From Eledone cirrhosa (taxonomy: Eukaryota): DNA of 64,000 nucleotides. The notes under the pieces were generated by a model. The model was given only the letters and a program-made list of their open reading frames with translations. It ran no database searches and was not told where the DNA came from. The DNA is taken from contig OZ024742.1 of assembly GCA_964016885.1 (NCBI GenBank), positions 339,388,001 to 339,452,000 on the forward strand, in the 5' to 3' direction. The translations under genes were made by a program, and so were the position numbers. Positions 1 through 24,785 of this stretch are shown here, in pieces (positions within the stretch are counted from its first letter, which is position 1; the number at the start of each line of letters is the position of its first letter).

Positions 1-1438
1 ACGTTGTAGAAAGTATATCTGGTACAATCCTATTTTTAATGCCTCGATTAGTACAAAACTATCTCTTTCATTCTTTAAGTTAATCAACAAACACTTCCCT
101 AGTTCCCATAAATACAGCAAAATTCTGAACTCTAAAACTATTAGACTATCATACTCCACGGCACCAAACCTTGAAGCATACATAAAAAAAACTTAACTTA
201 AGGCAATTAAACAACTCTACAAAACAAAACATTTTAGTAACAGATGGGCAGAACGCAATATCTGCCTCCCAACCACTAAATGGGAGACGGGTATTACACA
301 ACCCACCTGTACCGCTATCACAACCTATCCATGGTATACCCGCTACCCACAACAAAGAATGTAACTGCCATCTACCTGAAAGATGTCCATTGAAGAATGA
401 ATGCCTAAAGTCCAACATTGTTTACCAATGCACGGTTGAATCGAACGACCAGAAATGGTATTATATCGGATCTACCACCACATCATTTAAATCTCGCTGG
501 TACCGTCATCGATTCTCAATCAAACATCCGAATCACCGTTTTGTGACCACGCTCGCCAACAAGACCTGGCAACTCCGTGAACACAACCAACAGTTCACCT
601 TAAAATGGGATATACTTTCCAGCGCAAGTGCATATTGGAGTGGATTGAAGTACTGCAGGTTATGTAACCTTGAGCTCTTTTACATATTAAAATCCCAAAA
701 CAAACTACTTAACGATAGAATTGAACGATCATTATACTGCAACCACAAACTAAAAGCTAAATTCTCTCACTATAAAATAACTTAACATTCGAACCCGTAA
801 CTATAACACCACTTTCTAGCTAACAACCTTCTCTTCCCCCCACATACAAGACAATACACTGTTTATCACTATACATGGTAACTCAGTGCAATTCCTAGAT
901 TACTACTACAAACCCAAAGTTCACTCACCACACATACTTTGTCTGTCCCCTCTCTACCTATCTCTCTCTACATCCATTACACACTCTCTCTCTCACCTTT
1001 GACCTACCTCCCTCTCAACATCTATGAACCTGCTCTCTGGGGCAATAAATAATTCCGACCTTAACTATCAACGCATCTCTCCAAAAGTAACCAGTATAAT
1101 AAAACCCCTACCATAACATTTTGATTAAGATATCTACAAGCCACTCTCTCCTACTTCTCCAACCCCTGCATATCTTTCTTTCTCTCTCCCTCTTCCCTAC
1201 TTTTCTCTCTTCCTTTTCTACTCCATCTTCCCCAACAACCCCACTTAAGGGTATTTACATTGTACATTTACCATCCTGCTCTGAGGAAACAGTGGTCACA
1301 GCATTGGATATTCGAGTTCTGCAAGTACTTGTGAATTTGCACGTAGCATAACTAGGCTGCAGTACCACCGTGGAAACACTTGTAAGCACACGGAATAAAT
1401 TACCTTTTTATGATGTCTACCTGTTATTATTCATTCTT
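1..1438 (+). mobile_element. 3' part of a Naiad-type Penelope-like element: frameshifted linker/GIY-YIG ORF end, 3' UTR and hammerhead
   Basis: Frame from nt 2 reads RKYIWYNPIFNASISTK...NKHFPSSHKYSKILNSKTIRLSYSTAPNL and shifts at the A-run near 185. Downstream it reads CNCHLPERCPLKNECLKSNIVYQC...YYIGST...FKSRW...LKWDIL...CRLCNLE (to 785), homologous to the ORF at 3375-5834. The element ends at (TA)n. Confidence 0.9.
1277..1388 (+). ncRNA. Type I hammerhead ribozyme with long stem II insertion
   Basis: tgct-CTGAGGA-a-acagtggt..(~65 nt)..accaccgt-g-GAAAC-actt-GTA-agca; stem I tgct/agca. Confidence 0.75.
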
Positions 1439-1845
1439 TATATATATATATATATATATGTATGTATATATATATATATATATATATATATATATGTATG
1501 TATATATACATACATATATATATATATATATATATATATATATATATATATATATATATATATATATACATACATATATATTTATATATATATATATATA
1601 TATATATATATATATACATATATACATACATATATATATACATGCATACATATATATATATATATACATATATATATATATACATATATATATATATATA
1701 CATACACATATATATATATATATATATATATATATATATATATATATATATATATATACATACATATATATATGTATATATATATATATATATATATATA
1801 TATACATACATATATATATGTATATATATATATATATATATATAT
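1439..1845. repeat. (TA)n microsatellite. Similar arrays at ~9385-9560, 9848-9996, 10365-10563, 11500-12392, 13000-13125, 14520-15823, 19386-19732, 20095-20522, 22212-22443, 23380-23703, 24056-24403, 25100-25278 and 26047-26128
   Basis: Direct reading; these arrays produce the spurious YIYI ORFs. Confidence 0.98.
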
Positions 1846-1883
1846 GAAATATAAGAATCAAAGAACAGTTCAAAACATTATTG

Positions 1884-1930
1884 TGCTTACAGCTGTTTCC
1901 TCCAAACCGAGGTTTGGATTCTTCGGAGCA
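1884..1930 (-). ncRNA. Minimal type I hammerhead ribozyme (3' pLTR)
   Basis: Minus strand: tgct-CCGAAGA-a-tccaaacc-tc-ggtttgga-g-GAAAC-agct-GTA-agca; palindromic stem III. Confidence 0.85.
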
Positions 1931-3374
1931 ATTTATTAATGCATGGACAGTTATATGACCTCCTTTTCAGCCGAGAGATATACCAATACATATTCAAACA
2001 TTGATACATATTCAAACATTGTGGGTCAACATTCATTACAGAATTTAGAGTGGCAGTACACACTTCGAGATTACATTTATATTAATAGGTACAATCAAAA
2101 ATCAAAGATATAGGTTAAAGTACAACATGAAGATAAGTGGTTATATAGTGCAAATGTTATATGTGTGGCACGCATGTGCGTCTTGTTTATATAGTGTGGC
2201 AGAGAGATATGTGTGGTAGAGGCACTTAGGTAGGTAAATAAGAGTGTTAGGTTGGTAGATCTGGTGGCAAAGTCTTTATATGATTGATGTAGTCTGTGTG
2301 TGGAGAAATATTATAAGCATTAAAGATAGTGCAAGCATTAAAAGTGTTATAAGTATTGGAGATGCACAGCGCAGGGATGTCAAGTAATTCATGTACTTCG
2401 GCATTTTCATGGTCAAGGGAGTGTATATTTCGATTATATGCCTTTCACATAATCCACGACAATCCAGTTAGAGATCGTAGTCTGGTGTTCTTTAGTTCGA
2501 TACAGGAGGTTGTTACGTTTCGAGAAACGCCATTGAATACCGGAAGAGTGTGTGTGGCTAAGGGGAGTTAATGCATGCGGGGAGGTAACTCTGGGGTTTC
2601 CATATCTAGCCATTAAAATGTGTCCCAATATAGACCCTAAAATTCTATGGTGAGGTGCACCTTCCAAGAGAGACTTTTAAAGCATAAAGTGTACTAACTA
2701 TAGAGTAGTTTAACTAAATTATGCTGAAGGTGATCATATTATTATTAAGGTGGATTAACCCATCATAAGGTGCTACAAATGGAAATTATAGATGATGAGC
2801 GAGGATTCTAAATTAATGATCTCTGTGGTTGTAGTCTGCTCATATGGCCAGGCGCGGTGATTGCAGGATTGCTTCAGGACCCAATGATCTCTGGTAAGAT
2901 CTGGGTCATCACTTGCTACATTGGATGTCGAAAGATAATCGTCCCCAGGCAGGCCAAAGGTCAATCCGCAGTCCTCGCGACCCCTCTCTGACCGTCAGAT
3001 CATCCATATACGTACAACCCGCACGGCAGTTGCATTGCATTCACTCACTGCGCTCCGCAGCCCGGTCCTACTGGTCAACAGCGCTACTCGATTAAATCAT
3101 TTTACATCTGTCTAAGGAAGGTGTTTCCTCTGCCCAACACCATCCAACCGATCAATTCATGCTCAAATTACCCTTAGAGCGGTGTAGTGCCGTCCAAGTG
3201 GGTGGATGTTGTCACACCTGCCGTAGAGGTATAAATGGGTATTTTCCCTGCGAAGGGTTCCAGAGGGATGTCGTTGTTTGTGTTATAATGGATCAGCTAG
3301 TGTTGGGTATGTAGTATAGGGTGTGTCTCTGGTGTTTGATGCTAGATGTGGTGTTAGGTTCCAGTCCGACATTG

Positions 3375-22562: not shown

Positions 22563-23380
22563 TTCAGAGGATGCTCTGAAACTCCCGTACTCCCTTCCCT
22601 CCGGGGAAACTCTCGTGGCATCTAACAACATCAGAGACTTGGGAGTAACCGTCGACAGCAACATAAGCTGGGCCACGCATATAAGCAGCAAAGTTGACAT
22701 GGCCCGCAGAATGTGTTCCTGGATCCTCAGAACCTTCCAGTCGAGAGATTCCCACACCATTATCCTTCTCTTCTCTACTTTTGCTCGACCACATCTTGAA
22801 TAATGTTGTCCACTGTGGTCTCCCCACACGAAACAAAGTATCATGAAACTTGAAGCTCCTCAAAGGGCAATCACGAAAAAGATAGATGGCATGTCAGACC
22901 TTGACTACTGGGGTCGACTAGAAAAGCTGAAACTTTACTCACTCCAACGTCGCCGTGAGCGTTATATTATCTGCATGATGTGGAAAATGTTCCATAATCA
23001 CTGCCCAAATGATGTTGGCATCGCCTTCAAAATACACCCAAGGCTTGGGCCCCGTCCTATCCGTCCCATACAAAAATCTAAATCGCAACTCATAACAACA
23101 ATACGGCACAATTATTTCACCTCAATTGGCCCTGCTCTCTTCAACATCACACCAGGACACGTCAAAACAGAAACTGACCACACAAAATTCAAGAAGTCTT
23201 TGGACAAATTCCTCCAAGTAATCCCGGACAAACCACCCACACCCGGATATGTCTCCGCAAACAGTAATTCTCTTCTCGAATGGGCCATGGTGCCCAAATC
23301 CTGAATTGAAAGACTTCGCCAGGTGGTGCTATTAAGTTAGACATGGCCTGGGCCAATACTGGCCAAAACATTTCAAAGTT
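22563..23380 (+). mobile_element. 3' fragment of a second CR1/L2-group LINE (one in-frame stop at 22801)
   Basis: IRDLGVTVD...WILRTF...RPHLE*CCPLWSP...YSLQRRRERY...IPDKP..GY...SNSL. Confidence 0.9.
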
Positions 23381-23774
23381 ATATATATATATATATATAT
23401 ATATATATATATATATATATATATATATATATATATATATATATATATATATATATATATGTATGTGTATATATATATATATATATATATATATATATAT
23501 ATATATATATATGTATGTATATATATATGTATGTATGTATGTATGTATGTATATATATATATATATATATATATATATATATATATATATATATATATAT
23601 ATATGTATGTATATATATATATATATATATATGTATATATATATATATATATATATATATATATATATATATATATATATATATATATATATATATATAT
23701 ATATTAGAAAGTGAGGTTTTTTTTACAAAATGAAAAATAACCGAGGTGTCCTACACGAGTGGAAGTATAAAGAA

Positions 23775-24055
23775 AAAGGGATGAAATCGAAAATGCAACT
23801 GAAGTCTTATTTTTTTTTTAAATATATATATTTATTTGGTTCCTACACCGGTTTCGCAGTTCTTCTGCTTTTCAAAAGGTGAGTTGAGATGGAGGGTCTG
23901 TGGTTTTTCTCCAGATGTGAGAAAAACCACAGACCCTCCATCTCAACTCACCTTTTGAAAAGCAGAAGAACTGCGAAACCGGTAAAGGAACCAAATAAAT
24001 ATATATATTTTAAAAAAAAATAAGACTTCAGTTGCATTTTCGATTTCATCCCTTT
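23775..24055. repeat. Palindrome (7-nt spacer) of the 3' end of the PLE family at 17165-19386; hammerheads at 23842-23879 (-, mutated) and 23951-23988 (+)
   Basis: Arms are reverse complements and match ~19300-19390. Confidence 0.9.
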
Positions 24056-24403
24056 ATATATATATATATATATATATATATATATATATATACATACATA
24101 TGTATGTATATATATATATATATTTATATATATATATATATATATATATATATATATATATATATATATATATATATATATATATATGTATGTATGTATA
24201 TATATATATATATATGTATGTATATATATATATATATGTATGTATATATATATATATATATGTATGTATATATATATATACATACATAGATACATATATA
24301 TATATATATATATACATATACATACATATATATATATATATATATATATATATATATATATATATATATATATATATATATATATATATATATATATATA
24401 TAT

Positions 24404-24785
24404 AATATTAAATAAATGGAAACTATATTTATAAAACCATATTTATTTCATTATATATATTTCGGGGATATCATATTAACAATATGCTATGCCTTCCTCA
24501 GACAAAATACAATATAAACAGTTTTATAGATAAATATATTCGACATACCGTAACAACACCGACTTGCATTTGAAGAGGTTGAACTGGCAGAGGTTGGACT
24601 GCCAGTTCAACCTCTTCAAATGCAAGTCGGTGTTGTTACGGTATGTCGAATCTATTTATCTATAAAACTGTTTATATTGTATTTTGTCTGAGGAAGGCAT
24701 AGCATATTGTTAATATGATATCCCCGAAATATATATAATGAAATAAATATGGTTTTATAAATATAGTTTCCATTTATTTAATATT
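24404..24785. repeat. Palindrome (~187-bp arms, 8-nt spacer) of a PLE terminus; hammerheads at 24446-24507 (-) and 24682-24743 (+)
   Basis: ttttgt-CTGAGGA-agg..catatt-gtt-aatatg..cc-GAAA-tatata-TA-atgaaa; right arm extends ~90 nt further. Confidence 0.88.

Follow-up and report, generated by a model that had tools for sequence, protein, structure and literature searches.

Hammerhead ribozymes of a minimal kind have been described from the pseudo-long terminal repeats (pLTRs) of Penelope-like elements (PLEs), along with their dimeric design, pairs on opposite strands, and a U3-A8 version of the core (Cervera and de la Pena 2014, PMC4209133). Work on the elements themselves has described (TA)n targets, pLTRs, inverted truncated copies, and a Hydra clade (Craig et al. 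2021, PMC8557442). Retrozymes have been treated as derivatives of PLEs (Li et al. 2026 preprint, 10.64898/2026.07.22.740005), and 120,000 retrozyme copies are reported for the axolotl genome (PMC7229834). Here we analyze a stretch of 64,000 nucleotides (the window) from the 3.0-Gb genome of the eukaryote Eledone cirrhosa (assembly GCA_964016885.1, contig OZ024742.1, positions 339,388,001 to 339,452,000 of the forward strand). Its positions 1-26000 hold ~20 (TA)n tracts, the longest of 1.3 kb, with non-TA islands in between, and a sequence-only reading had counted 17 hammerhead motifs there, from ~11 distinct families within 25 kb. Our analysis makes it very probable that this 25-kb stretch consists of (TA)n tracts split by at least ten families of PLEs or their derivatives, each with a 3' type I hammerhead that is predicted from the sequence to self-cleave.

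Much of this fits a known pattern. The motifs in the window have in common with the minimal hammerheads of PLEs (PMC4209133) a location in the pLTR or the 3' part of the element, a helix III of 0-1 bp, a palindromic loop, a long helix II and a short helix I, a nucleotide after A9, the G10.1-C11.1 pair, opposite-strand pairs ~100 bp apart, the U3-A8 core, and the presence of many families per genome. Three families here (those of 19962-, 20541-, and 11239+; numbers give the position in the window and signs the strand) depart from that description in that helix III is a genuine one or helix II is very large. The minimal motif, the dimer design, opposite-strand pairs, U3-A8, TA targeting, and the link to retrozymes are thus already in print. 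What is new is the particular families, the very high density in the genome, and two abundant, well-spreading families with C or A in place of U4 at core position 4, variants that we did not find named in the text of PMC4209133 and at which no literature search of ours was aimed.

Hammerhead Motifs in the Window

Because Rfam gave no hammerhead, we wrote our own descriptor for type I motifs. It consists of a core (CUGANGA, UUGANAA, or C[A/C/G]GANGA), helix II, GAAA, UH, and helix I, and requires helix III in the form of a hairpin or of a palindromic loop. The strict setting demands at least 4 bp in helix I and at least 3 bp in helix II, the relaxed setting at least 3 and 2; dinucleotide shuffles served as controls (n=300 for the strict and n=100 for the relaxed setting). 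At the strict setting there are nine matches in positions 1-26000 (1884-, 6084-, 9131+, 10153+, 15856-, 19338+, 19962-, 20541-, and 23951+) and none in 26001-64000, compared with a mean of 0.077 per shuffle (maximum 4). The relaxed setting gives 13 sites in 1-26000, the gains being 11239+, 22051+, 24446-, and 24682+, against 0.34 per shuffle. Its sole match elsewhere, 36856-, resembles chance. Comparison with shuffled sequence was a check that the sequence-only reading had itself proposed, and its motifs come through it well.

Four of the 17 places are missed by the descriptor. Three of them are damaged copies of motif-bearing families that fail even the relaxed setting: 9762- has lost helix III through a 7-nt deletion not present in 35 of 36 family rows, 10654- carries two changes in a helix II that reads GGGC/GCCC in 29 of 31 family rows, and in 23842- helix I is broken and position 17 is a G. 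The fourth, 1277+, was ruled out as a hammerhead, as its CUGAGGA directly abuts AAAC and helix II is absent. The element around it does hold a hammerhead-like decayed remnant near 1352-1392, which aligns with the 3' half of the motif at 1884-. The count of 17 motifs is thereby reduced to 16, 13 of which pass the descriptor (nine strict and four relaxed) while three are decayed family copies. Other parts of the same claim hold up: seven of the 16 motifs lie on the + strand and nine on the - strand, a motif is present in 12 of the ~16 islands longer than 150 bp that are free of long interspersed nuclear elements (LINEs), and the number of ~11 families agrees with a lack of similarity among the islands apart from the duplicates named below.

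The motif-bearing families are labelled F1 (1884-, 6084-, and 9131+), F2 (15856-), F3 (19962-), F4 (24446- and 24682+), F5 (19338+, 23842-, and 23951+), F6 (20541- and 22051+), F7 (9762-), F8 (10654-), F9 (11239+), and F10 (10153+). In a first look at the genome, each has between 447 and 2433 candidate copies, with more than 2,400 for F6. The F5 family was also counted with the exact 38-nt pattern of 23951+, which occurs 6009 times in the genome, compared with 0 for the reversed pattern used as a control. Copies within a family are 92-100% identical.

More divergent comparisons are offered by F2 and F4, which belong to one superfamily. Local BLAST over 1.5 Mb of genome DNA fetched for other purposes supplied 28 distinct members outside the window, which were aligned with the window copies (31 sequences). 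In this alignment 94.3% of helix cells are paired, compared with 32-57% for slid partners, cell counts that are inflated by the relatedness of the subfamilies. In helix II, both sides change in five of the seven pairs, and the covariation score was reached by none of 500 shuffles; the pattern by which rows were selected fixed the core and flanks and left helix II free. When a covariance model was trained on just the 28 members from outside the window, it recovered the window motifs at 24444-24511- and 24678-24745+ with 77 bits (E 3e-13 each) and that at 15854-15926- with 48.1 bits (E 2.9e-7).

Penelope-Like Carrier Elements

The carriers of these motifs are best seen in F1. The island at 1854-9374 is a classic example of a Penelope-like insertion, both of its 3' ends facing TA tracts. 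Its full-length element lies on the - strand between a 3' pLTR at 1854..2192, which ends at a TA tract, and a 5' pLTR at 6054..6392. These 339-bp repeats are 99.4% identical and each holds the motif, at 1884-1930 (core CCGAAGA, with C4, and loop 3 CAGCUG) and at 6084-6130. An intact open reading frame (ORF) of 832 aa, P0001 (3375..5873, - strand), encodes a reverse transcriptase (RT) followed by a C-terminal GIY-YIG-like domain. On the + strand follows an inverted, 5'-truncated copy (6349..9374), which retains ORF residues 400-832 at 6385-7683 and a motif at 9131-9177, and whose 3' end is again at a TA tract. Forty scored F1 copies are 99-100% identical.

Penelope-type ORFs or their remnants occur at five places in this part of the window (2-782+, 3378-5873-, 6349-7683+, 16750-17441-, and 20709-21096+), and each is followed, on its own strand, by one of the 17 listed sites. 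Four families are placed in this way, 3' of a Penelope-type ORF and on its strand. The first of the five belongs to the 3' part of an ORF, P0002 (2..785, + strand), which has a C-terminal GIY-YIG-like domain and a non-coding tail to a TA junction at 1434; at its downstream site, 1277+, there is just the decayed remnant described above. The C-terminus of P0001 and the end of the P0002 ORF (186-785) share 37% identity. Together with the 3' ends at (TA)n, the pLTRs, the inverted copies, and tandem arrays elsewhere in the genome, these ORFs bear out the proposal that the motifs mark the ends of PLEs or retrozyme-like elements.

P0001 has 816 relatives at E<=1e-5. The named ones, 33-39% identical, belong to a bivalve and a cephalopod, and annotations among the relatives include HTH_animal, DUF8422, and GIY-YIG. 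The GIY-YIG domain is detected at E<=0.01 in two of 31 aligned homologues and PF01541 is recorded for two of the 120 relatives listed; in clusters of look-alike proteins 31-50% of members have GIY-YIG and RVT_1 is also present. Conserved blocks in the alignment (DK..N.Y, LKDHK, FD...YTSI, MG..D.A, YRDD, and KPN...SNHP) seem to resemble Penelope RT motifs. The predicted structure (predicted local distance difference test, pLDDT, 82; predicted template modeling score, pTM, 0.80) was compared with known folds by Foldseek. Telomerase RTs take ranks 1-7 and 10 of the ten best matches (E 2.4e-8 to 8.5e-7), and DRT, retron, LINE-1, and group II RTs come after them. By fold comparison alone, and with a confident model, the RT of P0001 would thus seem closest to telomerase RTs. 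An hhalign comparison of P0001 with the LINE RT of the window showed no RT relation.

Compared with the published description of the Hydra/Neptune PLEs, which carry a C-terminal endonuclease (PMC8557442), the F1 element likewise inserts at (TA)n, has pLTRs together with an inverted copy that is truncated at its 5' side, and holds its hammerhead close to the 3' terminus; its RT is too divergent for RVT_1, which fits a distinct cluster. It is larger, at ~4.5 kb including the pLTRs, than the Hydra PLEs, which are given as '<3 kb'. A further Penelope-type remnant, of the endonuclease, lies at 44735-44983+, beyond the range of the sequence-only reading. There is no motif 3' of it, and a model designated R1 has a weak match nearby, at 43953-44020- (19.2 bits, E 0.27).

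Motif Structure and Core Variants

The core is canonical at seven of the 17 places, in six families (9762-, 10654-, 11239+, 15856-, 19962-, and 24446-/24682+). It has the U3-A8 form UUGANAA at four places in two families (10153+ and 19338+/23842-/23951+), and position 4 is changed at five places in two families, to CCGAAGA at 1884-/6084-/9131+ and to CAGAAGA at 20541-/22051+. These variants are traits of the families and not local decay, since they are nearly uniform among family members: 37 of 38 rows of F1 are identical in the motif, CAGAAGA is kept in 39 of 42 rows of F6 with U4 in none, UUGANAA is kept in 66 of 70 rows of F10, and F5 is known from thousands of exact copies.

Helix III is of 1 bp, or absent, with a palindromic loop in seven of the ten motif-bearing families, a trait that was built into the descriptor as an option and hence is not independent of it. 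The seven loops are CAGCUG, UGCGCA, UAUAUA, CCGG, CG, CCGAUCGG (from family rows), and CAAGGCCUUG, and predicted dimer folds pair them. Two other traits were not required by the descriptor: the G10.1-C11.1 pair in six of the ten families (F3, F5, F7, F8, F9, and F10), and an extra nucleotide after A9 in F1, F3, F7, and F8.

Individual motifs show these traits in different combinations. The F7 motif (9762..9802, - strand) has a CUGACGA core, an unpaired U, and an intact 6-bp helix II, with helix III lost by the deletion noted above and 2 bp in helix I. The F10 island (9998..10363, + strand) is a 219-nt copy (10145-10363) plus an inverted arm of 145 nt, and its motif at 10153-10197+ combines the U3-A8 core UUGAUAA with the palindromic loop CAAGGCCUUG. 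F8 (10655..10686, - strand) is a minimal hammerhead with CUGAUGA, an extra A, a short helix II (with the two changes of this copy), and GAAACGUC. In F9 (11240..11321, + strand) a canonical CUGACGA core is accompanied by a 7-bp helix II around a 39-nt insert; in the window copy, loop 3 contains a G and helix I is short of one A. F2 (15854..15924, - strand) is canonical; helix III is of 1 bp (loop UGCGCA), helix I has 8 bp, and the motif lies 3' of the ORF remnant 16750-17441-. F5 at 19338..19375 (+ strand) has the U3-A8 core UUGAAAA, helix II GCAG/CUGC, and CCGG as loop 3.

The F3 motif (19962..20042, - strand) is a canonical hammerhead; helix III has 8 bp and helix I 7 bp, and at minimum energy the motif folds into a complete three-way junction. 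In four of 30 F3 copies (L047, L048, L053, and L057), the loop of helix III is inverted (GGGA to UCCC) and the stem unchanged. F6 is represented by an inverted short copy (20541..20591, - strand) with core CAGAAGA (A4) and a 4-bp helix III, at the left end of the island 20532-22202, and by a second copy (22051..22101, + strand) 3' of the ORF remnant 20709-21096+, in which helices II and I are weakened. Splicing at the CAG of CAGAAGA, which might have restored a CUGA core, was considered and rejected: the helix I strand abuts the variant core, and splicing would delete it.

Two families form head-to-head pairs in the window. In F5 the motif at 23842-23879- (G17 and a broken helix I) faces an intact one at 23951-23988+, with a perfect hairpin at 23875-23955 between them. 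In F4 the motifs at 24444-24509- and 24680-24745+, with core CUGAGGA, loop 3 UAUAUA, and an 8-bp helix I, lie on either side of a hairpin at 24545-24645. Inverted copies of this kind produce perfect hairpins of ~35 bp (23875-23955 and 24545-24645) as well as the palindrome with 145-bp arms at 9998-10363, and such hairpins have sub-threshold Rfam matches to several microRNA (miRNA) families.

Short Non-Coding Families

Several families are short and recur elsewhere in the genome as tandem arrays or pairs. F10 forms arrays at other loci with a motif spacing of 319-321 bp (unit 320 bp) and F9 forms arrays of a 483-bp unit with one motif each; both kinds of array are often joined to inverted arrays. 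F3 has a unit of ~476 bp with 156-bp terminal repeats. The head-to-head pairs of F5 and F4, ~110-240 bp apart, are found in the window and genome-wide. Of F3, F9, and F10 the window holds only single or truncated units.

These three families resemble the non-LTR retrozymes of metazoans (Cervera and de la Pena 2020, PMC7229834; Li et al. 2026) in their AT-rich non-coding units of 320 bp (F10), 483 bp (F9), and ~476 bp (F3), in the single type I hammerhead per unit, and in the short tandem arrays, here located elsewhere in the genome. They differ from those retrozymes in that the arrays, of 2-4 units, are often head-to-head with inverted arrays. The 5' truncation points of F9 show no convincing pile-up at the cleavage site (247), with five starts in 244-256 among dozens over the unit. 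The autonomous F1 (1854-1870) and the non-coding 483-bp F9 (11480-11494) share the terminal word TATTTCATA just before the TA junction. This common end may, as a possibility raised by the sequences, mark a retrozyme paired with the element that mobilizes it. Retrozyme-like tandem arrays were also seen in the random sample described below, at L235 (G000:C8:36350727-36360726) and L209 (G000:C3:17652666-17662665); one of the two has 16 canonical hammerheads at a 466-bp period and the other has ten at spacings that alternate between ~480 and 600 bp.

TA Targets and Genome-Wide Density

In all families examined, the 3' junction leads into (TA)n or into the next unit. The same preference is seen among dispersed matches in the genome, 13 of 24 of which have (TA)>=8 within 400 nt on the 3' side, compared with 14% of random positions. 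TA tracts per kb are about twice as numerous in the window as in a random sample, and they are longer. The islands at 12393-13000, 22558-23375, and 25281-26041 are also flanked by TA and belong to other repeat families with full-length copies at many of the loci retrieved in other parts of the analysis. No hammerhead half-motif was found in any of the three, so the ribozyme is not universal among the TA-inserting repeats here.

We used the strict descriptor on 600 kb taken at random places in the genome (60 stretches of 10 kb) to obtain a background density. There are 50 matches, or 0.083/kb (~1 per 12 kb), of which 26 are inside two tandem arrays, and at least one match occurs in 20 of the 60 stretches. 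Positions 1-26000 of the window have 0.35/kb, ~4 times the genome mean, a comparison that, like every one of local density here, has to be read in the knowledge that the window was selected for high density. In the flanks of 252 family members elsewhere, 132 matches in 504 kb correspond to 0.26/kb. Clustering is hence the rule beside such elements, and the locus is a moderately dense case of a genome-wide pattern. The density is above the genome mean but ordinary with respect to the neighborhoods of other such elements.

Extrapolation to 3 Gb puts the number of motifs on the order of 10^5, with a wide error, to be set beside the 120,000 retrozyme copies of the axolotl (PMC7229834), which were counted with another descriptor; a first look at the whole genome with RF00163 gave 415,510 rough candidates. 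The density of ~1 match per 12 kb far exceeds the 4,000-9,000 motifs per genome of PMC4209133, with the caution that the descriptors differ. The value for the field would seem to lie more in the genome than in the locus, as it offers many little-diverged families, natural U3-A8 and U4 variants among them. It is a convenient system in which to ask whether self-cleavage is needed for retrotransposition, which element mobilizes which retrozyme, and whether long TA tracts serve as landing pads. For annotation, hammerhead words in an AT-rich landscape of TA repeats usually represent the tails of PLEs or of their non-autonomous derivatives, which makes otherwise anonymous islands annotatable.

Self-Cleavage and Alternative Explanations

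The described biology of these elements suggests how such a locus could arise. A nick made in (TA)n by the GIY-YIG endonuclease would be the place at which the RT copies the element RNA, and template switching would give rise to copies in tandem and in inverted orientation (PMC8557442). Transcripts that are multimeric or result from read-through would be cut to unit length by the hammerheads; where helix III has 1 bp and the loop is palindromic, two copies from the same family would act as a dimer (PMC4209133). The short families would be mobilized in trans by autonomous elements (PMC7229834; 10.64898/2026.07.22.740005). The local density would then be a by-product of target preference and insertion clustering, without a function of its own.

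How many of the sites could cleave is a separate matter. The sequence-only reading had proposed that any transcript crossing the locus on either strand would meet several potential self-cleavage sites, and if working sites are meant this is overstated: seven of the ten families would need a partner of the same family, U4 is changed at five sites, and six of the copies in the window are damaged by comparison with the rest of their family. Loops differ among families, so dimer partners must come from one family, and the only same-strand pairs of this kind in the window are 1884-/6084- and 19338+/23951+. Judged from its predicted fold, 19962- looks to be the sole motif competent as a monomer. Of four sequencing runs compared with 19736-20098, one yielded two short contig pieces and three yielded none, an outcome uninformative on expression or cleavage.

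Several results weigh against the interpretation of the stretch as a set of PLE families with self-cleaving 3' ends. At the gathering score, Rfam calls a hammerhead at none of the 17 places, its only match in the whole window being tRNA-like. At E<=10 on 1-26000 no hammerhead is found among the 150 matches listed of 247, and miRNA-family matches fall on TA repeats and hairpins. A search of 15 short stretches flanking the sites (E<=10) gives a single match of the hammerhead clan, to HH9 at 10150-10206+ (19.5 bits with a cut-off of 52, E 0.19). The models Hammerhead_1 (RF00163) and HH9 (RF02275) have the same core and type I topology as the window motifs, and RF00163 detects a further family of the genome (34-38 bits); the gathering score of neither model is reached at any of the 17 places. 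These compact models are poorly suited to a long helix II or a palindromic loop 3. Among the proteins, no match to Pfam RVT_1 was obtained for P0001 or for 30 homologues, a profile of P0001 homologues has no match among PDB sequences, and the GIY-YIG match of P0002 (21.1 bits, E 4e-4) is below the Pfam cut-off of 22.6. Conservation across 30 copies of F3 is 0.970 in the motif and 0.968 in the rest of the element, and with family copies so alike and the motif no better kept, conservation at the level of copies is uninformative on function. Self-cleavage is doubtful for the five F1 and F6 sites with C or A at position 4, by analogy with a scan of a type III hammerhead in which activity was low after single changes in the CUGA turn (PMC9901934). 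Finally, edges of TA tracts of at least 100 bp are occupied in nine of 26 cases in the window and in four of 84 in the random sample (p 2.5e-4), and target preference alone is therefore not a full account of the density.

The lack of support from Rfam would also be expected if the matches had arisen by chance, from a loose descriptor applied to a sequence rich in AT and in repeats, and two places fit that description, 1277+ consisting of core words alone and 36856- looking random. For the other 16 of the 17 claimed places we regard this explanation as already refuted, and its overall probability as minute: the counts far exceed those in shuffled sequence at both settings, the motifs are fixed within families whose candidate copies number from hundreds to thousands, helix II covaries in the F2/F4 superfamily, and a model from other loci recovers three window motifs at E 3e-13 to 3e-7. 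A function of the cluster itself, either as a cutter of read-through transcripts on either strand (a boundary or terminator) or as a source of small RNAs from the long hairpins, is very improbable. Motifs on both strands, the more frequent occupation of long TA tracts than in the random sample, and perfect hairpins of 35 to 145 bp between inverted copies speak for it. However, the 0.26/kb beside other such elements is near the 0.35/kb found here, a third of random 10-kb stretches (20 of 60) have at least one match, most copies would need a same-family partner, six are damaged, and the window was picked for its density.

A stronger challenge, which we nonetheless consider unlikely, is that the motifs arrived with the elements and do not self-cleave in the animal, as hitch-hikers or with a different function, for example as a mark by which the RT recognizes the 3' region. 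F1, with its intact ORF and near-identical copies, and F6 have both spread with a changed U-turn, minimal PLE hammerheads cleaved poorly in vitro (PMC4209133), and Naiad elements thrive without hammerheads, the authors mooting that hammerheads may parasitize these elements (PMC8557442). On the other side, the core is fully canonical in six families, the U3-A8 combination of two more is a known compensatory pair that keeps activity (PMC3088659), helix II covaries across the F2/F4 subfamilies, and 19962- folds as a complete three-way junction. The U4-variant families, F1 with U4 to C and F6 with U4 to A, are of interest in either case. We tentatively raise, as a rather unlikely prospect, that they show a natural hammerhead consensus wider than held, or that self-cleavage is dispensable. 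If the variants still cleave in a dimer or in the cellular context, the natural consensus is the wider one; if they do not, self-cleavage would be dispensable for the spread of the elements, which would settle why elements carry ribozymes at all.

Other Features of the Window

LINE-type RT ORFs, unrelated to the Penelope-type ORF, lie at 13202-14500- and 32376-33815+ (Pfam RVT_1, E 9e-23 and 2.6e-19). Satellites extend over 37842-62830. They comprise C-rich 28-bp units at 37842-39533, (GTA)n at 39888-41078, 17-bp units at 41208-42253, (GTG)n at 46950-49068, 39-bp units at 49158-50060, and 26-bp units at 50562-62830, the last a run of 12 kb with ~474 copies. This run of satellites suggests a repeat-rich region, perhaps a heterochromatic one. 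The tRNA-like match lies at 37284-37347- (30.8 bits, with an Rfam threshold of 29) and is possibly the tRNA-derived head of a short interspersed nuclear element.

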